From Psammoneis japonica (Eukaryota), in assembly GCA_008632985.1 (NCBI GenBank), contig QPGO01000001.1, positions 900,404 to 964,403 on the forward strand: 64,000 nucleotides of DNA, given 5' to 3'. Shown in pieces: positions 18,455 through 64,000 of the stretch. The translations under genes were made by a program, and so were the position numbers. How positions within the stretch are numbered: the first letter of the stretch is position 1; every line of letters begins with the position of its first letter. The notes under the pieces are model-generated. The model searched no databases. It was not told where the DNA came from and saw only the letters and a program-made list of their open reading frames with translations.

Positions 18455-18544
18455 CTGCGGGGGTGGCGGGTCTGGAGCCGTCGCCAGTTCCAGATGAAAA
18501 GGCTCTCGGCAGTCGGTCCCCGAACCGATGCCGCTGCCGAATTC

Positions 18545-25000: not shown

Positions 25001-25084
25001 CAAACCACCTGCCAAGGTGGCATCCGCCATCAAACCTGGCTCCAAACCACCTGCCAAGGCAGCATCTGCCATCAAATCCAGCTG
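25001..25084. repeat. 42-bp tandem repeat, 2 copies; related sequence at 22322
   Basis: caaaccacctgccaagg at 25001 and 25043. Confidence 0.9.
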
Positions 25085-27475: not shown

Positions 27476-27500
27476 GAGAGAGAGAGAGAGAGAGAGAGAG
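27476..27500. repeat. (GA)n microsatellite
   Basis: About 12 GA units. Confidence 0.95.
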
Positions 27501-30500: not shown

Positions 30501-32726
30501 AAGATTTTGGGGGTCCAACTTTCAACTAACTTGCATCAAAGCTTGGTCTCAATCAAGTTCATTGCTTGCATGGAGCACAACAACAGAAGCCCATCAAAGC
30601 CATTTCCTTGGCACTGTCTGCAGGCAACTTCCCCACACTTCCTTGTGTCATCAAGAATCAGCAAGAAATCAGTGTCATCAAGTTGCATCTGACCAAGCAT
30701 CTCTTCCAAATGATGTCCAGCAGAAATCTCATGATTCAATGCAAAATCACAACAACAGTCAGCCCTTGCAAGGTGGTCCTCCTTCCAAACCAAACAACCA
30801 GAGGAGTCAATGGAAAGTGGCAAAATGGACCACAGCTCAATCTCCAAGCCACAACATTTCCTTGCTTTCTCTCTCGATGCAGCTCATGGTTGCAGAGGCC
30901 ACAAAGTAAACTGCTTTCAACCATGACCAAGTTCTGATGCATGACTGATGACACAAAATAAAATGGTGTGCACTGCACAAAGAAATTTTGTTGCATTGAC
31001 AAATCATGACAAAAGGAAGGCTGGGCTTTCATGCATTTTGTTTGTTCAATTTGTCTGTGTCTCTCCTCTGGCCTGCCCCCCATGCAACCAACCAGAGACA
31101 GATGGTGAAGATGAAGTCAAGGTGCGGGTTTGGGGCTGGTCACTTTCAAAATGACTAAATTTGCAAGTGGTCTTTTTGTGCATGAAATTGCACTCAATGA
31201 TTTTCAAAGGCTTTGGGGTTGTCATCCAACTTGCTTCATTGACACAAAAGACATCAAATTTTTAGAGTTGCCTCAAGTCAATTTTTTGGTTGAAAAATGA
31301 TTGCCTCCTGGTCAACCAATCTCATTTTTTTTACTTCTTGGTCATTGTTCACAAACAATTGAGTGCCAGCCTCTTTTTGTCTTGTGGTGGTTTGAGTGCC
31401 AGTGTCTCTTTTTGTCTTGTGTGGTGGTTCACCCTCATTGGCGGACATGCAAGACTTGTTGACACCAGTGTGCATGCCACCATCAAAAAATTATGGTCAC
31501 AGATCAAAGTCAAGACAGATCAAGCAACACTGCTCAACCCTTGTTTTGATGCCTGCTCTGACACCTGCAAACCACAACCCCAGATTTCCACTCTTTCATG
31601 TTGTTGAAACAAGTGTTGTGCACAGCGTTGTCACCAATTGTGCTGTCTCACACAGTCGTTTGCAGCATTGTGCACCTGAAATGACTGAGAAACATGTTCA
31701 GTGAAGCCTCTTTCTTGTTGTGTCTCTGGACAGAGCCACATGAACCCAGTTGTCTCTGCAGTCCAAGTTGTTGACAACCAGGCTTTCAACTGGTGTCTCC
31801 TCCCCCTCTTGGGAGCTTGTGGACAGTTGTGCAGCATTGTTGCACAAAACTGGGAGCTGGGTCATTTGCATCCTCTGGCAGATTTTTGGAGTTCTCTTGG
31901 CAATAAAATCCATTGCAAGGAAAGGAAAATTGACAATGCATGCCTCTCTCTCCTTGGATCCGCACAAAACAGATCTCCCTGCCCTGCCTTCTTCTGCTCA
32001 TGCCTCAAGACAACAGAGTCAACTTGTGAAACACAGGCTGACCTCACCCAGCAACCATCAACCCTTGTCAAATCTAAATCTTCCAAGGAAACACCTTCAT
32101 TTGGCTCAACTCCTTCAAAAAAGCCAAAACAACTGGCCTGCCAGGACTTGTCTGACGACCACAATGAATGGACACAAAGCACCACCAAATCATGTCTTTG
32201 ACTTCATCAGTTTGTCAAAAACATTGGATGACAAAGAACAAAGATGACAAGTGCAAGACAGAACATGCTGCTGCTGCTGATGAGTTGTGCAACATTGTGT
32301 GTTCTTTGCACATGCCATCGTTTGTGGGCTGCAAGCAAAGGCAGCAGCCACCTCTTGTGGGCCAGTGCAAGCACCATCATCAATCAAGAGTTGATTGGAG
32401 AGGCACACAATGAAGATGACACTGATGTGAGATGTTTGACAATGCTTGTGGATGTCACCAAGTCCTGGTTTGCCAGTGACGAACATCCACACGAAACCCA
32501 AGAACATTGTGGGGAGATCACTCTCCTCCTCAAAAAGAACGACACAACCACACAATGATGCTCATGCTTGAAAATTCAAATTTTCACATCGTGGCTCTGT
32601 GTTTGTGCAGACAATGAGACACAGCCATCCAGTGAAGCGTTCAATTTTCTTAGTCACAGTGCATTTGTGGGACTTCTCATACGGTAGACTACGGCCCCAT
32701 CCCCCCCCAAGACTTGTTGGGGCGTG

Positions 32727-34059: not shown

Positions 34060-34599
34060 TTTTTGCCATCATATGTCTGAGAAAATGTTGTGTCTGTGAA
34101 GATTTGTCTTCCCATGTGGAATGGCGCGGTGGTGAAGGAAGAATCGATGTGTTGAGACGTCCAGTCACGAATTGTAGAATCGTTTCACTTGCTTGGAGCT
34201 CGTGACTCGTCAGAATAGCCGAGGCGATGTCAATGAGAGAATGTACTTGGCTTTATTTCTATCGGTGAGCTCGGTGTCATGTCGATTTCATGCTTCGAGC
34301 TACGGTAGCGTAGGTGTCGTAGGTATCTAGAAAGAAACGCACCATAGCTATGTTCTTTTCTTTTGTCATACAAGCCAGACTCGATTCTTTAATTGCACTT
34401 AGTTTTTTGGAAATACTCTGTATACGAGCACACTGCATAATGCAATGACAACGCAAGCGTTCCCGAAGAGGTCATGCGATACAATCCTACTTAAAGAAAA
34501 CTAGAATACTAAGAGCCACACCATCCTACCTCTCCAAAGAACAACAAAATACCATTAGTCATTTTTTAATGGATTGTTCATCTATTCATCATCAACGGA

Positions 34600-35820
34600 C
34601 AACGCTGAAAATGCCGTGATGAGTCGAAAGTCGAAAATCACAAACAATGGGTCTCTCACCTTTCTGGGTCTGACAGCAGCCCAGGAAACCAAACCAATGC
34701 ATCACGGCAAGCAGGTGCTGAGCTTCATTTTTGCATTTTTGAGCACAAAACAGCGTGGCTGGGAAGAGCTGCTCTCTTTGTGACACTTGCAGTGACTGTG
34801 GTCCCACAGTCATCAAAATTGCTGTGGCACCACAGTCAACAAAATGGCTGAGTGGCTGTTTTGTTGTTGACAACTCTGTGTTCTCCTCTGCTCCCTGACT
34901 GCACCAAGCAATGTCTGCACTGCTTGGAACTCTGGATCTAAAGACAGAGAAGCCCCCACTGTGAGGTTTGCCAAAATGACAACAGCAAGCAAAAATTCCA
35001 TCCATGGCTCCAGATGGAGCTTCAGCAGGCTGCAGCTTGGTGCCATGGATGGAGGAGAGGCGTGCCGCAGACCTGCGCTCCTGTTCCATCATCTTTGGTG
35101 TGTGCATATTTTGGATCACACAGCACAGCACAGGTTCCAGGTTCTTCTGTGCATCATCCAGGCAATTGGTGAAATCTCTTGCACAGCTGAAATCCTTGCC
35201 CAACTCTGGTGCAATGATCTTCCCAAAAGATGGCGTGGCCGCCACTGGAGAGAGCCATTGTTCACAAAGTGTCAGAAAATCCGTGCAAAACACAGCTGAA
35301 AAAGTTCAGGTTCTTGCTGTGCAGAGGAAACATGGCAAACAAGCTCAGATTTATTGGGAAAGCTTGCATCCAGAAACTCCTCAAACATGGTGCAGTTGCC
35401 ACTGTTGCCACCGGGAGCAGTGCCAGGGATCTCAGTTTGATGCGCACAAACATGTCTTCGCAAATGGCGGTGCAACTCACCACATCATTGCATTCTTGAC
35501 CATGAAAGAAAATGCCATTCAGCACAAAATGAAAGCTGCTGCATTCTGGCTCATGCTGATCAAACTGCACAACTGCTTCTGGATCAGCGGGGCTTCTTCA
35601 ACCAAAGAACATGTCCCCGCCGGCTGGGCAGCTCAATTTAAATCCCATGTGGCAATGTTTTCAAGGTTTTTTGCATCAAACTTGGCCACCCAACCTTTGG
35701 CAAAGGATGCCAACAACAGCTTTGTCATGATCGAAAGAAGTTGCAACAAACGAGCTCAACACAAGAAATGCCTTTCCCGCTGTCAGGGCACATTGTGTCC
35801 TTCCAAAGATCTTCTGTTGG
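34600..35820. other. Isolated TpA-depleted island between two intact genes (relic insertion or dead gene)
   Basis: About 4 TA in 1.2 kb by eye, 3 of them in TAAA/TTTA; TA-rich sequence on both sides. Confidence 0.7.
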
Positions 35821-36177
35821 TCTGTTGGCAGTTAGCAGGCTGTGATTGGCAGGCAGCGGCTGCCATGCGGGTTCGTTGGTTTGGAGCTAGGGCCCTCCAC
35901 TGGTGGCTAGAGAGTTGCCGCCACCCGGAGGAGTTGCGGCAGGTGGGGACAAACAAGCAAAAAAGAGTTGGTTATTTCGAAAATTTGAGGGGCTGTAGAC
36001 AGATTATTCGAGTTTGTCTTGGCATTGGGTCATCAAGAGCAACACGTAAGAGAGAACAGGCCCGAGGCGCGAAACCCAACAACAGAGCGAGGCTAACGGA
36101 GAGCCAACAAAGGCATACTGTTACCCTGTTACTTGTGTTTGGACGCCGAGCTGTTCTTTGTGTTATTGAGAAGAAGC

Positions 36178-38076
36178 ATGAGATTGTCTAAATGTGCTGT
36201 AGCGTTGGTATTCCTGTCTGTTGTTGGGACATATGCCCAAGATCCGACCTGTACGTCGAGAAAGGATCAGGCAATTGATGCACCCTTTGTTTCGGCAAAG
36301 ACACTGCGCAATGGCATTGTGAATGAAGTGGACGACAACGGCTCGAATGCTCTGGACGTGACTGGATGTTGCAGTGGAAGCGTTGTTAGTGACTGCTCGG
36401 ACCAAGAATTATTGAAACGACAAGTGATTGGCAGCATGCCCCAATTCTCAGAAAGCGAGTCTCTGGAAACGTTGACATTGGCAAAGGAAGCTTGGAACGG
36501 TGGAATGGGAGCTTGGCCACAAATGTCGCTCAAGGCACGCATCGAGGCAATCGAACGTTTCATTCAAGAGCTTGCCAAGGTTCGAACCGAGATTGTCAAT
36601 GTTCTCATGTGGGAAATTGGAAAGAACCAAAAGGATGCCGAATCCGAATTTGATCGCACCGTGCAATTTGTAGAGCAAGTAATTGCCACCCTGCGAGAGG
36701 ATGGAGAGTTCAATTCACCGTGGCAAACAATTGGACAGACTAGAGCCTTTATTCGCAGAGCTGCAGTAGGAATCATCATGTGCTTGGGACCCTTCAACTA
36801 CCCATTGAATGAGACGTATGCAACGTTGATCCCGGCTCTGCTGATGGGTAACGTTGTTATTATGAAGATACCAACAGTTGGAGGCCTGGCTCACTTGTTG
36901 ACAAGTAAGTAACCACGATGACTCTTTCTCCCGATAGTGTACCTGTTGCGTCAAATAATTCGTATGACTTACAATCTTGTTTCTGTTCCAAGTGCAAGCC
37001 TTTGCAAAATCGCTACCGGCGAATACGATTCAGTTCATTTCAGGTTCAGGCCGCGCCACCATGCCACCCCTCATGTCTACCGGCGATATCGATGGCTTGG
37101 CCTTTATTGGTGGATCGAATGCTGCGGATGCCTTGATTAAGCAGCATCCAAACCCTCACCGCCTCAAGCTGTTCTTGCAGTTGGAGGCGAAAAACATGGG
37201 TGTACGTAGGGAATCTGTGTTGTATTGTCGTCATTCCACCAGCAAAGAAGTGTTCTCACGCTTTTTTCTTTCACTTTTAATGCGCAGATTTTCTTACCGG
37301 ATCTGTTTGAACCTGATAATGCCTCCATGTTGGAGACTGCCATCAGTGAAGCCATTACTGGATCTTTGAGCTACAATGGACAACGCTGTACAGCACTGAA
37401 AATGCTCTTTGTTCCGGCTCGCCGTGCGCATGTATTTGTTCGTGACTATGTCAAGCGTGTCGAGGAGCTTACGGTTGGACTTCCGTGGGAAACATTTGAA
37501 AAGAATGGTGGATACTCTCAAATCACACCTCTGCCAAATCAGAAACGTATCGACTACATGCAACAACTCATCCAGGATGCCATCTCCAAGGGTGCCAAGA
37601 TTATCAACAAGAATGGTGGTTCTATAGTCGGTGGATCGGAATCAACTCTAATGATTCCTGCTGTTCTATATCCTGTTACACCCGACATGGATGTCTATCA
37701 CGAGGAGCAGTTTGGTCCAGTCGTTCCCATAGTCGCGTACACAGACATTGACTCCGTCTTGGAGTATGGACGAGTGGGACAGTATGGACAGCAGTGCTCC
37801 ATCTTTACAGCCCTTGGCGAAGGTGAAACCGCATCCAAGATTCTAGACAGCTTTTCGTCGGTTTTTGGAAAGATCAATATTAATTCTCAATGCGGGAGAT
37901 CTCCAGATACTTTGCCCTTCTCCGGACGACGGTCATCAGCCATGGGTACAATGTCGGTCAAGGACGCACTACGCGAGTTTTCGATACCAACTGTAGTTTC
38001 CTACAAGGACAAGGGCATCAATTCAAATGTTATGGAAGAGATTCAAAAGAAATCTAATTTCATGGCGAGCTTGTAG
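36178..38076 (+). CDS. Aldehyde dehydrogenase, non-phosphorylating GAPDH (GapN/ALDH11)-like; 3 exons (36178-36904, 36993-37201, 37288-38076)
   Basis: PFNYPLNE, FIGGS, LEAKN, SYNGQRCTA (catalytic Cys), EEQFGP, PFSGRRSS. GT-AG introns restore the frame. N-terminal hydrophobic signal-like peptide. Confidence 0.92.
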
Positions 38077-42286: not shown

Positions 42287-42624
42287 GATACTACCACGTT
42301 TCTCTCTATAAGAGTAGTTTGATTGTATGATACAATTGAACCAGTCGAGCGACGTCAATAACAATGACAGCAGCTTTTTCAAGATCCGCGGCGGCGGGAA
42401 TCGGCGACTGTGATTCACGTGGTTTGATTTATCCGACTCAATCGACGATTCATTTTAGCGCGCGGAAAGACGCAACATCATGGAAACTCCATAAAAACAA
42501 CAAAACGCACAAAGGGAAGCGATAGACAGGTGAGAGAGATTGCGAAGAACGCGACGAAACCGAATTATAGTTGAATGCGATGAAACAGAAGTGTTGCTCC
42601 ATGTTGTTTGAGCTTCTGTCGCAA

Positions 42625-44184
42625 ATGGTAGTTTTGGTTTTACGCTATTTCTTTTTGATCTATGCATTATCTATTCGACTGGTTAGCTGCGATGATTCGT
42701 GCATGAATGCCATGCGCAGTACCCGTCGGAACGATGATTCGGTTTCAATCGTACAGAACAACCAGCGGTATGAAACCGAAGTAAAAGCTCTAGCGCCAAT
42801 CCCTTGGAACTGCGAGCAGTCGTCAAGTCAATATTCTCTCACTATTCCCCATAGCAGAATCTACAAAAGAGGCGATGCATTTTGTCTTCAAGATGACAGA
42901 CGTTTCGGCCTAGACAACAATGGATACTTGACGTATTACGTGGGATCGACTCTAGTGTGGTCGCCTATCAATAGCACCGGTGAGGGAAGTTGGTGGATCT
43001 TTCAGGCCAACGGAAATCTTGTAGTATATAATGCCTCTCGAGCAGTGTGGTCCTCTCACTGGGATGGTTCTTACAGAAAGACGTCGTCCTCACAACTCAT
43101 CATGTCAACAGCAGGCCTAGCGATTCAAAAGAATGGCGACGCTCTATGGGGTGTACTACTTGGCAGCGAGTTTCTAGCTTCTGGTAATCTCTTTTACCTC
43201 GCCTACTACTATTCTTGGTATTTGGAAGGTGATTGGTCTCGGCACGAAGTTCAAGATGTTCCGCTCTTGGGGTACTACGGGACAGATTCTCCGACAATTG
43301 CTGAGCAACACATCGAGTGGGCGCTTCGGGCGCGTGTCTCTTCGTGGGTAGTATCGTGGTGGGGGAATGATAGATTGTCCAAACGCCATTTTGATCAAGG
43401 TATGCTTCGAGCAAGAAACATTGGTCAGATCAAATTTTGTATACTTTACGAGTCGATGATTCTAAAGGATTATAGCTTCTTGGACGGATCAGCGCAGAAC
43501 AAGCTTCGCAACGATTTACTTGCCATCCAAAGTGACTATTTCAGTCATCCATCGTATCTTCGATTGAATGGGAGACCGGTCGTTATCCTTTATATTACAC
43601 GGTCCGTCTTTGGGGAAGGCTTTGACCGTGGTGTATTGGAAATGCTCCGCAATGCTCTGAATGACGACATCTATTTCATTGCAGACGAGCCTTTCTTTGG
43701 AAACGGCAATGATTATCCTGCAACATCGGCTAATGGGTTACACCCTCTCGACGGAACTCCGATATTTGAAGCATACACAACCTACAATATGTTTCAGAAT
43801 GTGCGAGTAAGGCCGGGCGAGACAGCGTCCGATTACATGCTCCGAGAAGCCATGCCCATTTTCCACAGGTGGGCGAACGAAACGCTCTTTTTTCCAAACG
43901 TCCTGCCCATGTACCACGACTTTCGTGGTAAGGAGCCCTTGGTGGGCAATCCCGAGGACTTTTTGCGGCAACTTCAGGCTGTATCGTGTTTGCCCAAACC
44001 TACAAATAATAGTATTCCAAACCTGGTCTTTGTGACATCATTCAACGAGTGGTGGGAGGGCAGTCAGATCGAGCCCGACAGCCAAAATCGCTACGCCTTT
44101 AACTTTATCGATGCCTTGGCTCGATTCAAGGATACAGTGGACTTGAATGGCTACTTCTGGTGTCAAGACAGCGCACCTCCGTGA
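42625..44184 (+). CDS. Secreted bulb-type-lectin plus GH99-like glycoside hydrolase
   Basis: Signal-like N-terminus; FQANGNLVVYN...VWSS (B-lectin QxDxNxVxY-like); AYYYSWY, VSWW, YFSHPSYLRLNGRP, TSFNEWWEGSQIEP. Start codon uncertain. Confidence 0.85.
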   Translation: MVVLVLRYFFLIYALSIRLVSCDDSCMNAMRSTRRNDDSVSIVQNNQRYETEVKALAPIPWNCEQSSSQYSLTIPHSRIYKRGDAFCLQDDRRFGLDNNGYLTYYVGSTLVWSPINSTGEGSWWIFQANGNLVVYNASRAVWSSHWDGSYRKTSSSQLIMSTAGLAIQKNGDALWGVLLGSEFLASGNLFYLAYYYSWYLEGDWSRHEVQDVPLLGYYGTDSPTIAEQHIEWALRARVSSWVVSWWGNDRLSKRHFDQGMLRARNIGQIKFCILYESMILKDYSFLDGSAQNKLRNDLLAIQSDYFSHPSYLRLNGRPVVILYITRSVFGEGFDRGVLEMLRNALNDDIYFIADEPFFGNGNDYPATSANGLHPLDGTPIFEAYTTYNMFQNVRVRPGETASDYMLREAMPIFHRWANETLFFPNVLPMYHDFRGKEPLVGNPEDFLRQLQAVSCLPKPTNNSIPNLVFVTSFNEWWEGSQIEPDSQNRYAFNFIDALARFKDTVDLNGYFWCQDSAPP

Positions 44185-44495: not shown

Positions 44496-47400
44496 TCACT
44501 TTGCATTCTTCCGTTGATTCTTCTTCCCCTTCCTTTGCCGTGCTTCGCTTCCCTTGCGCCCACCCTTACATTTCTTCTCTCCTTTCCTTTTATGAATCGG
44601 ACCAAACAGAGCCGTCAGTGGATTTCCTTTCCGGTTCCCGCCTTTCAAGCCTTTTACCGACGACCCATTATTCTGGCCTTTCCCGGCCGCCACTGCGCGC
44701 TTCTTCCGGCTAACGCCATATCCAGCCATGATACGTCCAGCTTCGTCGTCGTCATCCAGACTATCCTCATTGTAGTTTCGTTTCCTCTTTTTGTTGGCCT
44801 TGTCTTTCTTGGCAAACACATGGCCTTGTTTTATGGAATGAACTGGATTCGCTGGCTTTGTCTTTTGCCAATCGGTAGCTTTTCGAGTGCACAACTGCCG
44901 GTCACGTCGCAGGAGAGACGCATGAATAATGCTACCGAGCAAGGATTCGTCGCGACTATTGTCGCACCCGGACATGAGTCGTTCCCAGCAAATGCTGAAT
45001 AGACGAATACAATGATCTAGATTGAAGACGGGTTTGAAATCTGCGAATCCGCCGCTTCTGCAGCACAGAGTAACATTGTTGGAGAGGCGAGTAGCGGCAC
45101 CGCTGTCTGCATTGGAAATACCACGGCTGCCCTTGTATCGAAAGAAAAAGGTCAAGAGGACTTCAGACGGCCGGTCGGATCCACCGAGAGCCAGGTGTTG
45201 CTCGAGCTTTTTTTCGTTTGAATCGAAATGAATCAGTCGTTGTTAGGATCATCCAATCAAGGCGAAATTGATGCATTGATTGAGTCATCGTTCAGGGAAC
45301 TTACGTGATGAGCGACAAGTACATAGAGTTTGTAGCTACCCAGCCCACCAGAGAATGGCTTGTCGAGATTCTGCTGGATTAGCAGTATCTTTAGAAGTAG
45401 AACTACAGCGGAAAAGCTGTCGTAATGCGCAAAACAATACGATCCGAAACAAACCGGTTGGTACAAAGATTAACAAAGTTCATCCACGACATCAATGAAT
45501 CGTCATTCGCTACACTCTACCTTTTGTACTTTTCAGCCTGCGTGGAAGCGTACTGGCTTGTATCTGTGCCATTGTGTCCTCCAATGGCAACATCGGCCTC
45601 AAACCCAAGATGTGTTGTCATGGCAATGATGGGAACACGAGCAAACTTGCGCACCTCGACTTGTTGTGTCAAGCTACTTTTTTGCATCTTGCGTCCGAGC
45701 GACTTGAGAGCACTAACCACAAGTTTTCGTGCTTCACCCGTGGGTCCAATGACCGGTTGTTGTTGCTGGGGTGGTGGTGCGCCATGCGATACAAACGACA
45801 CGGTCATGTCGGAAGTATCACCTAAACCGTCGGTTTCTTCGTTGTCACTATTGGCACAAGATGAGGCTACATCACTCATGGCACCTTGCTCTTGCATTTG
45901 TTGCAGGACGAGCGCTTTCCAACGCGCGCCGTCTTCCTCATCATGCTCGGAATGCAAATCTGACAAGGTTCGTTTGCGTGACCGACGAGAGAAGGCCTGC
46001 ATCTTGTCGGCACTATCTGCATCACTGCTCCCACTGCCATTATTGTCTTCGTTATCGGAATTGTCACTGTCAGAACATAGATCCAAAGCAGTTTGAGACG
46101 ACGAACCGGGCTCACCAGTTGGTGGCGCTGTAGTGATTATATCTGACTTTGACGCTGGCTTTGTCGAATCGTCTAGTTCTGCAGTCGCACGCAGGCTCTC
46201 ATCCGTTTCTGCGGTAGCGAGTGAGGCGTCAAGACTGGGTACTTTGACGGTCTGATCGAGCAGATTATGCTCTACAATGTCAGTCTCGCCTTGTAAATTA
46301 TCCTTTTCTCCATTCAAAGTATTACTGTTGGGAAGAGTCCCGCCTGCTTCAATCGTAAAGGGTGGTTCATCTCCGCCTGACTTGTTTGGATTACCATGGT
46401 CGGTAACGGTACTTGTTCCAGCCTCTTGCTCCACGGACGTATCTATAACATCAACCTTACCAGGGACAATCCCCGATTCTCCAATCAAAGTACTACGACT
46501 GCTGGGCAGAGCCACGCTTGCTTTAGGAGGCGAGGCATCTTGATTCGACTTGTCTTGATTCCCATTCTTCTCCAAACCCGATTCATTCTTTGGCTCTCCA
46601 GCATTTGCCGACTCAACGGGACGTTTCATCCATTCTTCAGCCAAGTCACTGATACCGGGCGAATTTCCACATGACTCCTTAGCAGGAGGCAAAGACTCGG
46701 AATCTAATTTTCCAGCCATGCTCTCCTTACTGGATTCAGCGTCCAGTTGGTGGTGCACCGAGGTGAGTCCAGTACTATTCGCCGACCCAACGGTAGCTTG
46801 CATATTATTTTCTCCATTGATACTTGGAAGAGTATGCTGCTCATTTGCTTGGACGACGTGTGCATCAGGAGTTTCATCACGAGTCGTCAATGATGCTTCT
46901 TCATCGTCAACCGGATCGTCAATCACAATGGCCGTTTCTTCCGACACACCCATTACGGAAATGAGTTGAAAACCAGCCGTGGTTGTTGTACTGTCCTTGT
47001 TGTTGTCCGTATCGTTGTCAGCATTTTTCGCAGTGGCGTCCAAGTCTGCTTCATCCATACTGTTGTTGGTAGTACTATTGCTCTCGACGACACCATCCGT
47101 AGTGGCAGCAGCAGCAGCAGCATCCGACGTTGATGACTCGGACGTGCTTTCTTCTGTAACAATGGCAGCATCGTGTTCTGCCAAGGCACTTCTCCACTGT
47201 TGAATTCGTGCTTCTCGCTTGTGAGCTGCAGCAATGGCTGTTGGTACGACAGCTTCCATGACGGCGTGTGGATCATCATCACCGCTTTCACTCTTACGCA
47301 TGCGTTTTTTTGGACAAGACTCATTGTTGTTGTTTTGTTCCTCATTCTGAATAATAGACTCTTGCTCGTCTACGGGCACAACACCCCACAAGGCTAAATC

Positions 47401-47997
47401 AACATCACTGGCAAAACAACAGACAGGTGGTGTTGCGTGTGATCCAAAGGCTTCTACACGAATCTGTTGTTGCTGGCTGTTGTTGTTTTTCTTGTGAAAC
47501 AAGCTCACGGCCGTATCGGTCACGTGTTGAATGAGATACGCCCGAGCTTGATCTTCTTGTGGTGTCAGTCGAACATAGGAAGCAAACGACAAGAGCTCTT
47601 GATCTAATTTTGCAAGAGCATCTTCGGATATGTGACTTGTTGGGAGTTTAGATTTCGTTTCATCCAGAGATTGAGAGACAGCAAGAGTAGTACTTTCTGT
47701 ACTCCTCAAGTTCTTGCTGTACCACGGCATGTCTCTCCAAGACGCATTCTTGTTTATACGTGGAGGCAGTTGTAACTGAAAGACTGGTTTCTTCTTTTCC
47801 TGCGTCTTTTTCTTTTGCTGCGCGTTTTTCTTGTCTTGCTTCTTTTTCTTATTCTTTTTCAACTGTTTCTTTGCCGCCTTTGCTTCGGCTTTTTTCTTTT
47901 TCAAAAGTGCAGCAGCGCTTTTCTTCTTGGGGGCAGCCTTATTGCGTTCGGCGCTGTCGGTTTCCTTTTGCTTTTTTGAAGTCTTTTTTTGAGCCAT
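44496..47997 (-). CDS. Non-canonical poly(A) polymerase / terminal nucleotidyltransferase (Trf4/PAPD5-like); 3 exons (47997-45521, 45416-45305, 45206-44496)
   Basis: FGSHAT...SDVDL, ARVPII...EADVAI, LLKILLIQQNLDKPFSGGLGSYKL; GT-AG introns keep the frame. Confidence 0.88.
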
Positions 47998-48768
47998 GAT
48001 AGAGTAGTAGCTGTTGTATGGATGGGTGGCGTTGTTGTTTTGTACTGGTATGGGTAGTAATAACAGCAAGAAGAAGAAGAACAACAACAATAACTTGTTG
48101 TGATCGTCGTTTCCGTTATTTTCGTCGTGTTCAAAATAATAATGACGCGAGCAATGGTTGGGAGCATTCTGCGTACTGGTTGGTACAAAAGCTACGTACG
48201 TATTTGCTACGAGAAAATCTTACATGCGTACAATCCTACTGTACCGATACCACAGCGACCTCGCACCTCGCGCGCACTCGCACCTCGCACAATCAATCAA
48301 CACATCATACCGGTACGTACAGCACAATCAACACAGCGCTGCCGCAATTCGTTGTCACAGTGACAAAGACACCATGTCGTTACTGTCGATAGCAGTCACC
48401 ATCTATTGTTTGCATTCATTGTCTGGACTCGTGAGATCTTTTCTTGCTGAATTCGTGGAGACAAGAGTGTCGTGCATCCAGAATGGAGGACGACGCATCT
48501 GCCAGAATCGAGAGTGCAATGGCAGACGTGTTCCAGCTCTAGGTGGGACCTCGCACTGCTGAACTGTGACACAATTATTTTTTATCATCCGTCGTATGTT
48601 TCGCACGTACATTTCTACGTGTTCTATTATAAAAAATTGTTCCACACTGCCTGTTTTGTGAAGCCAAAGGCTTTCTGTTGTCTGCACTTGTGTCAACAAA
48701 AATGCGCTGGGCACATTCTTTGATGTCTAAAGAACACACCCGGGCATGCTGCAAAGAATGTACTTCAA

Positions 48769-50838
48769 GTGTGGAGGAGGAGACACGTTCGCAAAATTGC
48801 CTCTTTTTCTGTTGGCGATCATTCATGTGTCCATTGCTTGACAATTTTGCTGCGGAGCTCGCACGTAGAATTCTGCAGGCCCAATGTCACAAAAAGTCCC
48901 ACCCAGGACTGGAGCCCGTCGGCACGAGCTGCGGGACTTTCAGAGGAGGTGTTGTCATCAAGCGAACATCTCCAAATTGAACCAGGATGTGAAGGATGTG
49001 TCAATGCCAGAGAAATTGACCTTTGCTGCAACATTGCATTGGCTGAATTGCCGCCCGAGATCGGCATGTTGCACCGACTGGTGAAGTTGGACTTGAGTTG
49101 TTGCGTGAGTCTCCAGCAACTGCCTTCAGAGATTGGGCGATTGACGAACCTCGAAGTGTTGTGCACTGGATTTTGCAGCACACTGACTGAGTTGCCTGAT
49201 GAGATCGGCATGTTGCGCCGACTGGTGAAGTCAGACTTGAGTGGTTGCGCGAGTCTCCAGCAACTGCCTTCAGAGATTGGGCGATTGATGAACCTCGAAG
49301 TGTTGCACTTGATGCGTTGCTCGAGTCTCCAGCGACTGCCTTCAGAGATTGGGCGATTGACGAACCTCGAAGTGTTGGACTTGATTTGTTGCTCGAGTCT
49401 CCAGCGACTGCCTGCAGAGATTGGGCAAATGACGAACCTCGAAGTGTTGCACTTGATGTGTTGCTCGAGTCTCCAGTGACTGCCTGCAGAGATTGGGCGA
49501 TTGACGAACCTCAAAGTGTTGGACTTGGGCAGTTGCTCGAGTCTCCAGCGACTGCCTGCAGAGATTGTGCGATTGACGAACCTTAAAGTGTCAGACTTGG
49601 GCAGTTGCTCGAGTCTCCAGCGACTGCCTGCAGAGATTGGGCAAATGACGAACCTCGAAGTGTTGCACTTGACATGTTGCTCGAGTCTCCAGCAACTGCC
49701 TGCAGAGATTGGGCGATTGACGAACCTCAAAGTGTTGGACTTGGACAGTTGCTCGAGTCTCCAGCGACTGCCTGCAGAGATTGTGCGATTGACGAACCTC
49801 AAAGTGTTGGACTTGGGCAGTTGCTCGAGTCTCCAGCGACTGCCTGCAGAGGTTGGGCGATTGACAAGCTTGAGGGAGTTGCGATTGAGGCACAGTGAGT
49901 TCCAACGACTGCCTGCAGAGTTTGGGCCATTGACGAATCTCGAAGTGTTGGGCCTTGTGGGCAGCAATGAGCTGGCCGAGTTGCCTGATGAGATTGAACG
50001 CCTGACAAACTTGAAGGAATTCCGAGCAACTGCTCTTGAGCTCCAACGACTGCCTCGTAGTTTGCTCCAGCTCTCGCGTCTTGAAGAGCCATGTCTGTCA
50101 CATTGTGAAAGTCTGGAGGGGCTGCCAAATGACATTTTCCGTTTAAGAAGTTTGAAACGCATGGTGTTGTGCAATTGCAGCTCTCTCACTCGGCTGCCTC
50201 CGGGAATTGGACAGTTGCATCAATTGGAAGACCTCCGGATTTCCGATTGCCACAGTCTCGCTGAAATTCCTGTCGAGATTCTACGTCAGCTGTGTAAGCT
50301 GGAAACTCTCCACTTGCGTGGCTTGTCACATTGCGCACGAGATTTCTTGCAAAACATTGGCACAAACAGTCTGTTGAATCTGAAACGCTTGGCTTTGAGT
50401 TATCTTGATCTTGAAGAGCTGCCTCCCGCATTGGGATCGCTTTGGAACCTAAAAAAGCTGAGAGTGCAGAACTGTAAGAATTTGACTCGCATTAGCAAAG
50501 AGGTTCTATCGCTGCCGAGCCTCAAAAGTCTCGATTTGCGTGGCTGTTCTGCGCTCACTATTTCGCCCGAGGAAATCGGCGAGGCTTCGTATTCGATTGA
50601 AAGGGTGATCATGCCCACCGATGAGTCTCAAGATGAAATGGACTGCTACTGCAGAATGAACCGTGCCGGACGACACCTACTGCGTCGAGAAAATGGAGTT
50701 CCTGATGCTCTCTGGCCGCACGTGTTGACTGGTCGTCAAAGTGACGATAACTTTGTGTTTTGGTTCTTAAAGCACAACCCGAACTTTGTCAAGAATCGAG
50801 TTGACAAAAGAGGAGTCAAGAGAGCTCGCGAAGAATAG
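48769..50838 (+). pseudogene. Leucine-rich-repeat protein with 72-bp tandem units; premature stop; hypermutated
   Basis: Repeated LPAEIGRLTNLxVLxLxxCSSLQR. TGA at 49477-49479 where sister units have CGA. C-terminal RMNRAGRHLL...W..VL...FWFLKHNP. Start uncertain. Confidence 0.88.
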
Positions 50839-51559
50839 CAAGCTTTTGTAAACGTGCATGTCGGTCTCAGTTCGATGACGGTACCGGTAGATGTTGTGTA
50901 GACTAGCGCGATGTAGAAGTAGCTTTCTATGAAGGCGCTAGCTAGACCGAATGGCTATCCCGTTGATGCCATTAAGATTGTAGCTATGCCCTTTCTACTT
51001 CTATTCAATCAACATCTTAAAATCAACGCAACCAGCTTTCCACGAGAAGTTGACGTATGATATTGCCATCAAACAGAAGCAGTAGAACACACAGTAGTAC
51101 TTGAAACGCTTGTTACTGGTCTATCGCACGGACCTCTCATTGTGTATCGTCGCCGGACCGTAACCCACGTTGCCTTTCCCGACGAGCATATATCGCCGCA
51201 CGGACTTTGTGTCACGGTACGAATGGCACGAAAATAATGATAAACGCTACTACTGCATAAGCAACACACGAAAAGAGAAGGACGTTTGGTGTCATATCAT
51301 ATCGTTTCTATTAACTCTGCAAGATGGGAAGAAAGAAGGGTACGTCTTGTGTGTCGTCACGTATTGTTACAGAGTTGCGATGGTATGTATGTAAACTACC
51401 GGAAGGTATCTACTCTATAGATCTATGATTCTCAAGTCTGAATTAACACAAGCCCTTGGATACCATACAATGAGCTTTTTTAACAATTATAGGAAGACAA
51501 GCCAGTACAAGCTGACATTCTTCACGTCGGGATGCCGAATCTGTCATGGATTCAATCTT

Positions 51560-52500
51560 CTCCCAGTAGCTGCGAATATTTTGCTGCACACTCTCGCGTG
51601 ATTGCTTTGTGGACGCTTGTTGACGTCCTAAGGACTATCCTGATTTCCATCCTAGCTTCTGAAGCAGTTGATTCCCAATATTTGTTTCGCCAAGATTCTC
51701 TTCGGGGTGGACGACTTGAGTCGGTCGAACGTTTTGTTCTTCTGCAATCACGGGGGGCTTGCGTCACTGTCTCTGGACCATACCGGTACATAAAGCGACG
51801 CTCATTGGCACGATCTCGGTAGGCAGCACCAGCCTTGTCTGCAGCAGCGTCGGTAGCCATTTTCTTTTCTAGATTTTCCTTGTGTAGCGCAGACTTTTCT
51901 TCGTACTGTCGGAGCTTGCCGATGCTGGCGAACTTCCTCTTGCACAGCACGCAAATAGGTTGGCCCTTAGCCGTCTTGGGTACTACCACGTCAGCGGCAG
52001 TAGGCTGCTCGTTACCACGCATTTCTTTTCCTCGTTCCGACCACATGTCCATGTGAGCAGCATGTTTCTTTGAACCCATGTCTCGGTCGGCTCTTTGGGA
52101 ACTTTGGCAGTCGTCACCTTTGTAGCATCCTTGGAGGCTGTGGATTTCGGAAGCTTCTTCGTCCTGAGCGAGATGGCAATCATTTTCGTTTCGCTCGGCT
52201 TGGCCTCTGATTTCGGCACTGCTGCTTCAGCTGTCTGCTGGTTTGCAACCTCTTGAAAAGGTGGGTCCTGTCCCGGGCAATGGGAAAAGCACTGCTGCTT
52301 CTTGTTTCCACAGCAAAGTTTCATTTTGGGGTCACAGAAAAAGCCACTGGCTGATCCGTAAAAGCATCCTGACCGAGCGTCAAAGACGCAGGCTCCATGC
52401 TCTTGAAAGATGGAAGGCCATTCCAAACTGTGACTCGGAGGCGGTGGTGGAGACGACCTTTTCTTTTGGAAACGACGACGTCTAAACTCATCGGCATCCT
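51560..52500 (-). pseudogene. RBM5/RBM10-like fragment: OCRE, C2H2 finger, G-patch; disrupted
   Basis: OCRE-like xVFDARSGxFYGSASGFFxDPK; ICVLCKRKF...SALHKENL; YRDRANERR; NIGNQLLQKLGWKSG*SLGR with an in-frame stop; frameshift near 52080. Confidence 0.8.
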
Positions 52501-53172
52501 CACCCAGCTGCTCTAGAGCCTTGCCAAAGTCACTTGTTTTTTGCCGACAATCATCGGTTCCCTCTCTGCGGGGCGGCGGCTCATTGCACCAAGCGCCGCA
52601 CCTTGATCAGCGTTCCTCTTGTACATGATCACGAGTTTGACACTGTCAACAAGCATCCAAATGAAGCGATGGTGCAAGAGACAATGCAAGAACGCTTCCG
52701 ACCAAACTTGTCAACCGCACCTCCAAGAAAACAGGGTTTGGGCCGATTTCTGGCACAAAACTCACGCAGAAAATTCGCGTAGAACATCTTGTTCGTCGTG
52801 CTTTTCCCATGCTTTGCGAAAAACAGGCCACGACCTCAAGGAATCGATTTCAGTCATAACGGTTGACACTTTGCATGCTTGCTTTTTGATGACAAACACG
52901 ACAATGTCCACCGTTCGGCAAAATTCCATCATTGGAAAATGTTTGCCGTGGTGGTGCCGTGGTGAAGTGTTGATCGAATTTCTGAAAATGGAATTTTGAA
53001 GTGTTCACGCACAGAATCGTGTTGCTTGTGCAACAGTCATCATGTAAAGTGTCAATGGTTTCAGGGGAAAACGATTCCTTGAGGCGTCGGTGGAGCAGAG
53101 AAGCACGGTAGAAGCACGAGAAAAAAATCGGCCCAAACCCTAATTTTTATAATTTTTTCTACGTAAAATTTC

Positions 53173-57587: not shown

Positions 57588-58199
57588 TGTTCAGCAATCG
57601 ATTTGCTCATCAATATTGTTGGGAAACTTTGTTCTTCGTAACTTTTTCATTTTTATGTGCTCCTTCTGGCAATTTGCCGTAGTGTCCCGTTCAAATAACC
57701 ACGCATTCGTTACACACTCGTGACTGACGTCGCGCCTAGAGAACATTCTTCGGTTCGACTCTCTACTACTGAGGACCCTACAGTATTCGCGGCAGGACTC
57801 ATTTCGCGTTCGACCCACGTGGCCTACAGTGTGCAGGGATAGCATACAAGTAGCTTATATCTAAAAGGTAGAGATTTGCTGTTTTGTGTAAAATTATGAG
57901 ACTAGTTGCACGTACTGTGTAAGCATGGGTACGCGCGCGATAGTAAGACATACGGAGCTGCAGTCCTCGCGCGAAAAAACCAGTCACACTCGGCCAATCT
58001 TGCGCGATGGCCAGCAGTCGCGCCGTGACGACACGACCGCACGCAGCCCCTGTGCATGGAACTCCAGCAGCAGTCTGCCGACAGTCCAGGGCTTCTAGCC
58101 CTAGACTCCAAGCCAAGCAATGAGAGGATGCGATTGGCTGGCAGAGTCGCGGGGGTCATCACGGGAAGCAGAGGACGAGCGTGGGACAGACTGGAGACC

Positions 58200-59180
58200 G
58201 AGGATGGAAGGACGACAGATGCCACGAGATCCCAGACATGACCAATCCACGCATTGTTCCCTTGGCAGTCAGCATCTCAGGGGTTGCAACCATGGTCCAC
58301 TGCAGTGTCCATGCGTCATTGCAAAATTGTCACCCTGGTGGCTGTTGTGGGGTGCGGGTGCGGGACATGCGTCCCCTGAGAGTTCTTTCTGCTTTTTCGA
58401 TTCTGTGCTCTGCGGAGCAATCGGACAGTGATGCAACAGTGCGACATTGCATCGTTGTTTGTCGGGCCCCTGATGGGCATGTTTGTGCTGTTGCAGCTTT
58501 GTGCCACATTTTGAGGGTGGTCTCCTCATTGTCAATGAAGCCGTTTTGTGGAGTTTTGCTGCTCCCTTGGGTTGTGCCCTCGTCTGAAGGAGTTCAGCCA
58601 CATGCTGCCGGCCATGGTCAACTCCTCCCCCCAGCTGATTGGTGGGCAAGGCAGTTGTCATTCATGCACACCTTTGTAAATGTTGGACAATTGCGTTGAC
58701 CTGTTCTCATTGTGCACATTCTTCCTGGTCTTGCGCACTTTGCGCAGTGACCAAGTGTGTGTTTGTCCACGCCGGAATGCAGTGTGTGGGCACGGAGCAT
58801 GTCAAGCATCTCAGCATGTGCCATTGTGCATGCATGCCTGTGCATGGAGATTGTTTGCTGGTCACACAGTTCATGGCCGTTGACAGATTTTGACATCAAA
58901 CACGATGATCATGTTGTGTTGTCTCCATTTTTGACACGATTTTTGACAGTTGTGGACAGGCTGCTCCACGTGCAGCATTTTTGCCAGTGGATTGTTGAGA
59001 GCACCTGCTCATAATTTCAGCTTTCAATTGTTTGACAATGGGTCATGAAGCTGTCAACTGATGATGTTTTCACCCTCAGCCGCTGCCATTCAACATGGTC
59101 ACAGTGCTGACATCCAGCGCCACACGTCGGCATTCCCATTCTTGGTTGAGAACAAAGCCTTGTTGGTTCAACGTTGCGTC
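58200..59180. other. TpA-depleted unidentified relic
   Basis: About 2 TA in 1 kb by eye; no confident motif. Confidence 0.55.
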
Positions 59181-59199
59181 CCAGAACAAATCATGATGT

Positions 59200-62100
59200 G
59201 CATCCCGCTGTCATGTCCAATCCAATGAAGATGACACAGTTTGCATTTGTGTGTTCCAAGTGCATCATGATTCTCACCCGTCCGCAGGCATTTGCATTGG
59301 CAGCAGACGACATGTCTGTCGCCGGGAGTCCATCAGATGAGATTGGGAGTCACACTCTGGTCTCTGTTGCCCTTCCCAAGTTTTGTGCATCAGCAACTGC
59401 TCTGTTGGCATTGTGATCAGCTGCAGTGCATCATCTTCCAAGGTTGACTCAGGCACCGGACACTGGCACTGTTGACGGTCCAGCAAGCATGTCGGAGGAG
59501 GACCGAGTCATGACTGTGGAACAACTGCATTTCCCTCCACCCGCAACTGCAGAGGACCACCCACAGATTGTGGTGCTGCTGCTTTTTCTGCCACTGCCAC
59601 TGGGTGAGGCCTTCTCCAGCGGCACTTGGTTGGATGAACCTGCCCCAGATCTGGATGTGGACTTCCCCTTGGGTGGTGTGGAAGCAGGGCATGCAGCATC
59701 TTGTGGCTGACAATGACGAGCAATTGGTGACAAAGCAGGGTGGCCCTCTTTTCAATGTTGCCAGTTTGGAGGAGGTTCCAGGTTTTTATGGACTCAATGT
59801 TGTGGAGCCATTGCTGCAGGTCAATGATGTTGCAATCCTGGCTCCCATTGCAGATTCACATGGGTCAGCGAAGCAGTTCGTGAAAGCAGCATTCGACACT
59901 TCACCATGGGGCTTGCTTGGAGCAGATCCAACTGCTGATGACAATGCGGTGGCACAACCTGTGGGAGGAGATGCTGGCATGGGTGGCAGAATGTCAAATC
60001 ACCAGATTGTGGCACTGTGTCAAGGAATTGCAGCACCCCACCCCCACCCCCCAAGTTGCAAGGAGGAAGAGCATCTTGAGGTTACTGTGGACTGTGGAGT
60101 GCACTTGGCATTGGGAGCTGGCAACTGGGTGCACCCCCCCTCCCCCCCACCACCACCACATTTGCACTTGGGGAACTTTGTCCCAAGTTTGTCATGGTGC
60201 TCAAGATGACCGACAAATTTGTCGTCACCCACAAGTTTTTGGACATGGTGGCTCACATCCTTGCAGGATTTTGTCAGAGCAACTCATTTTTGGACCAATC
60301 AGCGAAATTCACACACAAAGTTGTGAATGAGGCATTTGAGACTTTGATCCATTTGTTTCATGTCCACACCTGTGCAAGCTTTGTTGTCAAAGTTTTTGAT
60401 TGTCCTCTTGTTGGAGCCAAGTGTGGCGGCGGCAACCTGGGAGACAGTTGTGGATGAGCTCTTGAATCTCCCCCTTCAGGAGCAGCAAAGCCAGTCCAAG
60501 TCAGAGGTGGCAGTGTCGACTCTGAAGTTGTCTGTCCTCCATGCCCAGGGAAGGATTGCAACTCCACAAGATGCATTGACTGCCATTTGCAACCTTTGAG
60601 CGTTTGGCCTCTGTGTGACACCTGACTTCAACCAATCTGCCCTGTGGTGGTTGGTTGGGATGTGTTGCAACGTGCTTGATTTGGAGTGCAGCAATGCATG
60701 GTTGGGTGAATGTGTTGCTGGATGTCCAGAACATCCTGGTGGATCACCTGATTGTTGGGAACCAGCCCATGTGTTGCAAGGCAATTGTGTTGGGTGGTGC
60801 TGTTGATGGGTGCATTTATGACCAGGCAAACGCAATTGCCAAGCAGCTGATTTCGGAGTTGCAGATGGCAATTTTGTCAGGTTATCCTGGGTGTTACAAT
60901 GCAATCACAGATGTTGCTGCAAAGCTCATTCCTGACCTGAACAAGTCAGGGAATGCAGCAAAAGAGCCTGCGCCAACTGGTGCTGGCATGGCAGAGGAGC
61001 TGGCCAAGAAAGAGCAGAAGATGATGTCGTCCAAGGAGGACAGGGCAGGAGAAGCACAAGAAGCTTGGCATTCTGGCACACAGCGGGGCTGGCAGGCCTC
61101 CAAGGATGTGCCCAGTCCATGCTAAAAAATTGTGCAACTCTGCGGTTGAGGAGTGCTGCTGTGCCAATTTTGTGCTGATTGGTTGTTTTTGCATGAATGC
61201 AAACTGCCCGGCCCTGAGCCGCACATCACAAATGCCAAAGTGCTCAGCAATGAGAAGGAGCAGCAACTGTGCAGATGGGTCAAAGACACTGAGGGGCTTG
61301 GTTTTGCCCTGGGTGAAGGCCCAACTGGTGAGGTCACTGCTGCAGCATGAGTTGCACTCTGTTGCACACCCTTGTTTTGGAGATGAATGTTTGTTTCTGT
61401 GTTGATCCCCATGCTGTGCAGCATCCAACATGAACTGACGTGGTGCACTTTGTCATCCTCATGTTCCAGCATTGCACAATGCAAGCCCAACAGTCCCCAT
61501 GCTTGCTGATCCATCAAGTTGCAGTCCAGGGTTTAATCCTCCTGTGTTGTTGTCCAGTCTGGCCATGGAACCATCAGAGGCGGACACAAACAGGGCAATT
61601 GGCAGCAAGGTGGGCCCTCTTCCTGAACCACTCAGAAGGTTTCTATCCCATTCTGTTGCAAGTCACAAAGGACACTTGCGGGTCACCACAAGATGTTCTC
61701 CCCACCATCAACAATTCATTTTGCAAAACGGAGTGGGAGGTGTCAAAGTGCAAGCATCTTCTGTCATTGGTCCAGGCCATGCCAGACCAACCATTTGGCA
61801 AGGAATCTATTTTGCAATGTTTTCTTGCAGAGGCGTGCTTGCATCATGTCTTGATGCCATTGCAAAAGTCTGGATTTTTGACAATGTTGGAATGGCTGTG
61901 TTTTGCGACATCAATCCCCGAGGCACAAGAGTTCACAAAGCTGGTCAAAGAACATGGCAATGCCAACTTTGGAGGAATCCAAGGACATGCCAAAGACTGG
62001 CAGAATGTCACAAGTGTTGACAAAGAGTGCACAGATGTGGCATCTGTGGCCTCACTTCATTTCAATGGAGATGTTGCTGCAACAGTTTGATGAACGGGAG

Positions 62101-64000
62101 GTCCTCATGTTGGGCAGCATTGCCACATGGACGCAATTGAGCATTTCTTAAGTTGTGCAATTGATGACAAGGATGTGAAGCTGCTGATCACTGCCAAAAC
62201 GGTTTGCCATCACACTGCAATGCAACATCAATGGAAGCAAACTTCCAAGCACACCTTCAGCACAGTGATCATTTGAGTGTTGACTCCAATCCCAAAAAGA
62301 CTCTCAAAACTGTTGTGAAGGATGTGAAGCGGGGAGGTGCTGTCCGTTTGACAAGAGCTTTTGACTCCATTTCTGCTCAACTGCCATGTGACACCTCACA
62401 GGATCATTGACTTTGACCAACCCCACAAGATGCCAAGACCAATTTTTGACAGCTTGTTTTGACCGGAGAAGTGGAGCATGACTGTCAAAGACTGAATGTC
62501 CAAGGACACAGAGCCACCCCTGTTGGACGAGAGCACAGAGATGGATCTCATGAAATGGATCTGCAATTTGCACATGTCCTGCAGTGAGGAGGAAATTGTG
62601 ATTGGTGACATCAATGTCAGGGGAGCTTCTTGCAATGACAAATGCCCATCCAACTGGTTGCCATGCACACAAGTGTGCAGGCCAGTTTTGGCATTTGCAA
62701 ACTGGGAACAACTTTGGGGACAATGCAAACCCCTTGAACTGGCAAGTTGTCACAATGGCTCATCAGCAGTTGTTGCAGACATTGTGGCATTCAGAGGGAG
62801 TCATTGGCATGACTGCCTCATTTGTGCCACAAATTTGGTTCTGCCCGGAACCTGGTGATGAGGACATTGCATCTTTTGCACCGGCAATGGCAGACTCCAT
62901 CAACAAGGGAGTGTGTGATGAGCACAGCCTCTGAACAGTGCCTCCATGCACACACCATGTTGATGACAATGTGTGTGTGCAGATGTTTGAGTGCACCTCC
63001 CATGAATGCCAACGGCAAGCGCACTGTCACCATTCTGTGCACTCTGTTTGGGCATGCCCTTCACATGGTGGGAAGGGCCTTCGACTCTCGTGCACTAGCT
63101 GTTGGAATGCTTGAAAGCAAAAAGGACCAACTTTTCAAGGCATTGACCACATGGATTGAACATGTGACCGCCTGTGACTTTTGGATGCTGCGGGCCTTAA
63201 CAGGCTGCTCAAGAATCACACAAGATGTGTGCAATGGGTGCACCCACTCTTTTTCACAATGCAGAATGACACACAGGCGGCTTTCAAGCAACACCATCAC
63301 ATCATTCATGATTGGTGGAATGAGGATGTCAAGGCAAAAAGCAAACTCTACACCAATTGCCCAATTCCCAGTGCAAGCAAGTTGATCAAATTGTTGCCAA
63401 GGAGATGGCAGCCCCACTCTGGCACACGCGAGCCAAAATCCACTGTTAGATGAACTTTGGCATTCACTGCACTTGATTCAGAATTGCCTGCAGACTCGTC
63501 CCAAGTCATTCTTGGAATGCATTGGGTTTGTCATCCCAAGAGACCCAGATGTCCGGAGCTGCAGAGATGCAAACATGGATCATGGGGGGGTGGCTTTTGC
63601 CCAACACTCCATTTCTGGTTTGACATGGGATGGAGCCCCACATTTTGCATGGTGTCAGGAATGCTGGGCCATCCACAAAAAAGGGCATCTCCATGTCAAC
63701 CAACAACCAACTGGGGTTCCTCATTGTCACTCTCCAGTTTGCAGGTGCAATGACACGCATTCGAACTGTGACATGGGAGCAAGCAGAAAGCTGTTTTCTG
63801 GATGGGGTCTCCCCCTTGGCCTGTGATGCTCTCCAAATGCAACAACACTGGTTCAGTGAAGTGGAGTGACAAGACCTTCACTGCATTGCTCTTGGCACAG
63901 GCCCTCACTGCCCATTTTTGTGAACTCTTGAAAACTTTGAAGATTGGACAAGATGCTTGGCACCTTGAGGGGATGCTGAACAAATTGGTGGATGCCATCT
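59200..64000 (+). mobile_element. Second, highly degenerate DIRS/Ngaro-like retrotransposon (ORF1, RT, RNase H); runs off the window
   Basis: Relic motifs LHFNGDVAA...GGPHVG, PRPIFDS, WICNLHMSCSEEEIVIGD, PPCTHHVDDN (62941-62970), RAFDSRALAVGM, and RNase H-like FWFDMGWSP / HVNQ..QLGFLIVTLQ. Many stops and frameshifts; no recombinase inside the window. Confidence 0.65.

Follow-up and report, generated by a model that had tools for sequence, protein, structure and literature searches.

Probable footprint of a TA-removing transition process on a tandem-repeat leucine-rich repeat gene of Psammoneis japonica

Background

Hypermutation directed at the dinucleotide TpA has been described once so far, for the rhizarian alga Bigelowiella natans in a preprint of 2026, where it strikes chiefly integrated viruses (Mettrop et al., bioRxiv 10.64898/2026.01.13.699255). 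According to that preprint, two integrated viral regions in mutation-accumulation lines mutate ~1000 times faster than the remaining genome, all but one of the de novo mutations in these regions convert TpA to TpG or CpA, and DNA adenine deamination is proposed by the authors. The preprint also reports 124 depleted clusters genome-wide, a Rho of 0.45 for the viral region, and domains of "likely host origin" among the depleted genes. Here we describe a 64,000-nt stretch of Psammoneis japonica DNA (assembly GCA_008632985.1, contig QPGO01000001.1, positions 900,404 to 964,403 of the forward strand; hereafter the window), in which a host-type leucine-rich repeat (LRR) gene with a 72-bp tandem array is nearly devoid of TA. 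We think it fairly probable that a process removing TA by transitions has left its footprint on this gene.

The likeness to B. natans lies in the conversion of TpA to TpG/CpA, in TA depletion accompanied by a gain of CpA and TpG, in the tract-wise clustering, and in the presence of transposable element (TE)-type domains among the depleted sequences. At the LRR locus too, local TA depletion in 48870-50280 goes together with TG/CA enrichment at an unchanged pyrimidine-purine total. However, B. natans is a chlorarachniophyte with chiefly viral targets, whereas the genome studied here is diatom-like and the affected sequence includes a host-type tandem LRR gene. A foreign (viral or TE) origin does not describe the target: the left 290 bp of the TA-poor tract fall in a high-copy element and the remainder is mostly host-type LRR frame. 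Furthermore, the footprint is saturated here, occupies ~45% of the window and is accompanied by CpG depletion in many blocks, unlike the only partly depleted viral region of B. natans, and a process seen live in that alga is proposed here from a footprint.

Other described systems match less closely. Repeat-induced point mutation (RIP) of fungi also saturates tracts with dinucleotide-specific transitions, and can create stops and missense changes and leak into flanks. RIP converts CpA to TpA and thereby enriches TA, whereas TA is depleted here and the C-to-T signature at CpA is absent; moreover, paralogous and high-copy sequence beside the LRR tract is spared, and dependence on repeats is unproven. 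Methyl-CpG deamination accounts for a TGA stop at 49477, for the CGA/CAA/TGA and TCG/TCA series among sister units and for 15 of 57 substitutions in the core units, but it cannot remove TA. With regard to the gene itself, the LRR-ROCO candidate immune receptors of brown algae (PMC3341825, PMC11378527) offer a parallel in a stramenopile with fast-evolving modular LRR arrays, and the best database relatives of the window gene carry Roc/COR domains. The frame in the window is without them, however, and consists of one intron-less tandem array varying by point transitions, whereas LRR exons are shuffled in the brown algal genes. A literature search, the matches of which were checked in part, found no report of TA loss in diatoms.

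Results and discussion

TA is nearly absent from one tract

A sequence-only reading had counted three TA in about 1.4 kb of the repeat region, with TA returning after 50280. Our recount agrees: 48870-50280 (1411 bp) contains three (49584, 50058 and 50144) versus 79.4 predicted by base composition (observed/expected 0.04), and the next 560 bp (50281-50840) contain 14, giving a ratio of 0.37 next to a whole-window value of 0.36. TG, CA and CG stand at 1.61, 1.21 and 0.73 of expectation in the same 1411 bp. A single TA occurs in the 895 bp of the array at 49057-49951, and the bin over the array has a ratio of 0.02. The TA-poor tract exceeds the previously noted interval on its left side, and TA density returns to ordinary from 50282. 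The features of the locus are as follows:

48631-50281: TA-poor tract; 6 TA in 1651 bp (48728, 48761, 48866, 49584, 50058, 50144), GC ~0.53, CG largely kept
48724-50838, plus strand: open frame of the LRR gene; one TGA interruption, no in-frame ATG before 49066, Pfam LRR
49018-49953, plus strand: thirteen 72-bp (24-residue) LRR units in frame and register; ten core units 4-11 nt from consensus
49954-50281, plus strand: diverged LRR units with 2 TA, still part of the TA-poor tract; at the DNA level they resemble the array only as far as about 50064
50282-50838, plus strand: 3' part of the frame; more LRR units, a ~90-residue tail and the stop, with 14 TA and several paralogous contigs
48482-48936: very high-copy dispersed element adjoining the array, recognised by contig depth; its 5' part (48540-48630) has 9 TA, its 3' part lies within the TA-poor tract

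Among the pyrimidine-purine steps of the tract, TA accounts for 0.02, TG for 0.50, CA for 0.28 and CG for 0.20. Set against the gene's own 3' part, these shares have moved by -0.10 (TA), +0.10 (TG), +0.05 (CA) and -0.05 (CG); CG is still at 0.73-0.78 of expectation, TA at only 0.02-0.04. The pyrimidine-purine total is conserved well beyond this locus, at 0.23-0.25 of all steps whether in host genes, in the LRR tract or in any TA-void block (see below); only the TA/TG/CA/CG split varies. A constant total with a shifted split is the expected residue of transitions at TA and CG.

The depletion exceeds chance and is reflected in codon use

The repeat units cannot be treated as independent evidence, because the consensus 72-bp unit is itself TA-free. 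Redundancy was collapsed to 763 bp (48870-49017, three unit types and 49882-50280), in which two TA are observed. At the host rate of 0.0363 per bp, derived from nine open reading frames (ORFs) in the window (482 TA in 13,273 steps), 27.7 would be expected (Poisson P 4e-10), and at the rate found in the 3' part of this gene 19.1 (Poisson P 1e-6); Fisher's test of the collapsed sequence against that 3' part gives P 4e-4. Confined to the non-array flanks (475 bp, 2 TA), the probabilities are 5e-6 at the host rate and 6e-4 at the gene's 3' rate. TA depletion is therefore greater than chance even after near-identical units have been collapsed.

The same loss is visible in codon use. TTA and CTA make up 19% of Leu codons and GTA 16% of Val codons in host ORFs, where Tyr takes 2.7% of all codons. 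The non-redundant part of the tract has one TTA/CTA among 48 Leu codons, no GTA among 11 Val codons (eight are GTG) and no Tyr in 254 codons. In the 3' part of this gene, 5 of 31 Leu codons are TTA/CTA and 3 of 185 codons specify Tyr. In an alignment with 40 homologues, 170 Tyr fall on the TA-poor part, mainly facing Asp (27), Arg (23), Cys (22) and His (21). That homologues often carry Tyr where array units show His, Cys, Asp or Arg would fit a TAC ancestor, though it is no proof of one.

Selection against UA in mRNA was considered and rejected, since the void extends into non-coding sequence and ends mid-gene.

The LRR gene is one of a family and probably dead

The host-type nature of the gene, as read from the letters, is borne out by Pfam (LRR_14, E 5.7e-41 and 1.4e-21, together with LRR_4 and LRR_8) and by the database relatives. 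Its units match LxxLxLxxCxxLxxLPxxIGxL, the 24-residue Cys-containing or ROCO-like LRR type. Roc GTPase and COR domains gave no Pfam match in 48724-50835; it is the relatives, P0001 for one, that have them. Introns are absent from the gene. Tandem Repeats Finder detects 10.0 copies of a 72-bp period at 49234-49951 (86% matches), and a 144-bp super-period; diverged LRR units continue to about 50600, and those past 50281 hold 9 TA in 320 bp. A protein search with the LRR part retrieved no same-species paralogue (1490 matches at E <= 0.001 among 8000 candidates scored), and among the 120 matches listed the highest identity is 51% and the top-scoring match is 41% identical.

Judging by its frame, this copy is in its present state a pseudogene or 5'-truncated. 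It is one interrupted, probably dead copy of a multi-copy host-type family with ROCO/plant-like 24-residue units. A 466-residue open frame also runs antisense across the array (48819-50219, minus strand); because TA-free DNA lacks TAA and TAG, we regard this frame as a by-product and not as evidence of a gene.

Differences between sister units and CpG decay

Three positions in the array deserve separate mention:

49477-49479, plus strand: in-frame TGA (CAG-TGA); sister units have CGA (6) or CAA (3), a C-to-T change at CpG
49231-49233, plus strand: TCA (Ser) at a conserved Leu position (column 71), TTG in 10 units; the first of two independent cases
49591-49593, plus strand: second TCA at the same unit position; this unit also has the array's only TA (CTT-AAA, 49582-49587)

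All of the sister-unit differences quoted by the sequence-only reading are present in the aligned units. TCA-GAC closes the units at 49162 and 49522 and TTG-GAC the others; CCTTAAA is found in unit 49522 alone, CCTCAAA in three units and CCTCGAA in the rest; and TTG-CAC (CAC in 3) is met by TTG-TGC (TGC in 1). TTG (10)/TCA (2), CAC/TGC and ATG/ACA are TG/CA pairs with no CG remaining. Two further columns, one with TCG (5), TCA (3) and TTA (1) and the other with CGA (6), CAA (3) and TGA (1), are CpG-decay series. The ten core units differ from their consensus by 57 substitutions, of which 15 are CpG transitions (G>A 11 of 50, C>T 4 of 50). The stop at 49477, also listed in that reading, is present, but it arose by the CpG process and not by the TA process.

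The Leu/Ser and His/Cys pairs had been read as descendants of TA codons. They can indeed be derived from TA, but equally well from CG. Two independent TTG/TCA pairs are hard to obtain via unlinked substitutions, and an intermediate with either TA or CG explains both, so that the pairs themselves do not settle the question. Aligning the units and building their consensus has therefore confirmed the differences but, the consensus unit being TA-free, the array adds little independent evidence.

Paralogous contigs and a high-copy element

A search of sequencing runs for this stretch listed one DNA run and no RNA run. Contigs of the DNA run with at least 80% likeness were placed on 48300-51000 (n=2756), and 40 of 357 variant places were listed (29 inside the tract, 11 beyond 50281). 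Exact single contigs have a depth of 55-73. Summed contig depth reaches 37,000-189,000 in the bins at 48482-48936, 24-645 over the LRR body and 260-996 over the 3' end; the latter, taken to be unique in the sequence-only reading, is covered by several paralogous contigs. Many loose contig ends lie at 48571-48920. In 48200-49100, the region of the high-copy element, Rfam produced only one chance-level match (E 0.16), and there were no inverted repeats and two short direct repeats only. One paralogous contig of 1782 bp connects 48524 with 49038 and 49096 with 49759, and this copy of the LRR gene may carry the high-copy element as an insertion.

At 5 of the 29 listed places inside the tract, other contigs have TA where the window has TG or CA; the reverse was seen at none. 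These are 48722 (48 contigs), 48784 (57 contigs), and 48998, 49100 and 49107 (1 to 3 contigs each), and at the first two most contigs of the element family read TA. Up to 49166, 7 of 25 listed places have CG in other contigs and TG or CA in the window. None of the 11 listed places beyond 50281 has TA in the other contigs and one has it in the window. Fifteen of the listed variant rows stem from one contig. Comparison with the other contigs is in line with TA loss at those five places, but the differences within the array are unpolarised.

An assembly artefact was rejected, as exact contigs bridge 49822-50214 and 50206-50709.

TA-void blocks elsewhere in the window

Including the LRR tract, ~29 of 64 kb lie in nearly TA-free blocks:

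8947-10749, 15468-21028, 21030-32650, 34584-35800 and 58103-64000: TA-void blocks, together ~27 kb
52000-53000: TA-poor, CG-retaining stretch; 9 TA per kb, overlapping minus-strand ORFs at 51552-52606 without a Pfam family

Neighbouring single-copy genes had been described as untouched. This holds for the upstream gene at 45520-48219, with 0.036 TA per bp, but not for 52000-53000. In the main blocks the observed/expected ratio of TA is 0.00-0.16. CG is kept in 15468-21028, in the LRR tract and in 52000-53000, and lost too in the remaining blocks; the abrupt switch at 21029/21030 suggests that insertions of different age lie side by side there. An ORF in the 5.6-kb block (18926-20476, minus strand) has no Tyr, compared with 14 in its sole database homologue (55% identity), and nine homologue Tyr face another residue in the ORF (Cys 4, His 2, other 3). 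Self-BLAST of the window returned 15 pairs of at least 80 bp, none joining different TA-void blocks. Pfam, applied to 29 ORFs in or near the blocks, gave no family for 26, Aldedh for 2 (a host gene) and RVT_1 just under the cut-off for 1.

The minus strand at 15859-20476 is occupied by long ORFs (348, 400, 260 and 517 aa) separated only by TGA stops or frame changes. This chain lies in a TA-void, CG-retaining block, has no Pfam family and has one database homologue (P0241, 55% identity). The Atlas clusters matched by the ORF at 16972-18171 (minus strand) are unnamed; reverse transcriptase first comes up at rank 17 (19% of members) and again at rank 23 (53%), a weak lead. Probably, we suggest, 15859-20476 represents an undescribed type of mobile element that has been hypermutated.

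A proposed mechanism for TA loss and its alternatives

The process we favour would be a context-specific transition of 5'-TA-3' to TG or CA (A to G on either strand) that came near saturation over 48631-50281, a patch of ~1.65 kb spanning the 3' part of the high-copy element, the 72-bp array and four diverged LRR units. The likeliest mechanism would be adenine deamination at TpA at the DNA level, delivered in patches, as proposed for B. natans. A second, slower process, CpG transition, also operates in this patch, probably through deamination of methyl-cytosine, and it produced the stop codon. What we observe is the TA void, a rise of TG and CA that leaves the pyrimidine-purine total constant, depleted Tyr, TTA, CTA and GTA codons, and CpG decay. 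What we infer is the enzyme, its action on DNA in place, whether it acted before or after the units multiplied, and the reason for its presence at this site. The earlier proposal of a mutator stands as regards a TA-removing footprint that leaves TG and CA, which is supported by the collapsed counts, codons, contigs and other blocks, but attraction by repeats is unproven.

Several points weigh against our interpretation. The consensus unit is without TA, so that the ten core units descend from a single founder already lacking it, and the units may have been TA-free before multiplying. A test for missing TA-creating transitions in the array (1/110 versus 5/190, P 0.42) has no power with 57 substitutions, and CG is as good a starting point as TA for every TG/CA pair seen between units. 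At 48722 and 48784 the window letter is shared by about a quarter of the summed depth, so that subfamily variants are possible, and TA versus TG differences to the paralogous contigs within the array have no polarity. The variant comparison rests on 40 of 357 places, and two of eight listed contig pieces end exactly at 50280, where the right edge may be a homology or cassette junction.

The sequence-only reading held that repetition itself, as a tandem array or as paralogy, attracts the mutator; this would work in a RIP-like manner, the effect spilling a few hundred bases into the flanks. The tract is indeed about centred on the array, with 387 bp of it before 49018 and 328 bp after 49953; spill-over past the DNA-level similarity is TA-poor on both sides, and the two independent TTG/TCA pairs in closely related units suggest post-duplication hits. 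Yet the 3' end past 50281 has normal TA although paralogous contigs cover it at 260-996 (versus ~60 for one), 9 TA survive in the 90-bp 5' part of the very high-copy element, and TA is likewise retained by three further tandem repeats of the window, which measure 132-324 bp and show 93-100% matches. Within the window, any repeats in the large TA-void blocks (5.6 kb and 11.6 kb) are short and weak, and TG outnumbers CA by 10:2 at the Leu site. Given the 3' end, the 5' part of the high-copy element and the other repeats and blocks, triggering by repeats is unproven, and we consider this explanation unlikely. A similarly limited chance attaches to an inherited cassette, that is, a TA-free segment that gene conversion or recombination copied in from a paralogue or mobile copy already hypermutated, with no mutator action at this site. 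Paralogues exist, the upstream region is common and joined to the array in the 1782-bp contig, two listed contig pieces stop at 50280 where TA resumes, and the tract edges lie within homologous sequence, like those of conversion tracts. The left edge, however, lies in the high-copy element, which is apparently absent there from the paralogous contig, and the paralogous contigs listed have TA at 48998, 49100 and 49107 and are thus not TA-free donors.

It would take a good deal of coincidence for no mutator to have been involved at all, with a chance TA-free unit amplified and LRR composition and codon choice explaining the remainder. A 72-bp stretch at the host rate is TA-free with a probability of ~0.07, the consensus unit being such a stretch, and LRR proteins are Tyr-poor. 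This account is already strained by the non-array flanks and diverged units, which are also void (P 5e-6 to 6e-4), by the LRR units of the same gene beyond 50281 with their ordinary TA, and by the leftward extension of the void into non-coding, non-LRR sequence; we judge it very unlikely. We would be greatly surprised if the footprint came from a double-stranded transcript that had undergone A-to-I hyper-editing and was then reverse-transcribed and re-inserted, even though U is preferred before the edited A, as in ADAR-type editing, according to the preprint (bioRxiv 10.64898/2026.01.13.699255). The intron-less state of the LRR gene and a reverse-transcriptase ORF within the window are in line with such a route, but the tract begins in a dispersed element and ends within a reading frame and not at the ends of a transcript or retrocopy. 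No ADAR is known from outside animals, which we also count against it. In B. natans, moreover, the mutations accumulate in place in DNA, as stated in the preprint (bioRxiv 10.64898/2026.01.13.699255).

If TA has indeed been removed by directed transitions here, the process would be widespread among algae of the stramenopile-alveolate-rhizarian group and not confined to foreign DNA, given that its footprint covers nearly half of the 64-kb window and reaches a host-type LRR gene family. Silenced diatom DNA could then be dated and mapped by sequence only, TA being lost first and CpG later, and the targeting of the mutator would become directly testable. By itself the LRR gene is a modest result, this copy probably being a dead family member; the saturated TA-void landscape is of more interest. 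A far bolder proposal, to which we give little credence, is that diatoms possess patch-wise, TpA-specific DNA adenine editing, similar to that of the chlorarachniophyte and drawn to tandem arrays and mobile DNA, which rewrites immune-type LRR genes. The changes would be Leu to Ser, Tyr to His or Cys, and Ile to Met or Thr, and the editing would either curb repeat expansion in a RIP-like way or generate receptor diversity.

Other sequence in the window

The left end of the window has a perfect 253-bp inverted repeat (1-253 and 1444-1696, 100% identity). It is followed at 1981-8224, on the minus strand, by a purine-skewed region (GC skew 0.34-0.49) with partly depleted TA (observed/expected 0.19-0.63), whose long minus-strand ORFs include one RVT_1 match at E 1e-6, just below the cut-off. 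Two ORFs at 11061-14229 carry DUF7507 and DUF11 repeats, domains typical of prokaryotic surface proteins, and contain 69-bp and 163-bp tandem duplications of 99-100% identity in which TA is retained. An aldehyde dehydrogenase at 36097-38076 is split over two ORFs (profile positions 16-168 and 250-456) by an intron or a frame break. In keeping with a probable diatom source of the window, the best named relatives of a GH99-like gene at 42571-44184 are from diatoms (Attheya, 59% identity; Cylindrotheca, 42-53%), and the first Atlas cluster for an HPP gene is Bacillariophyta.

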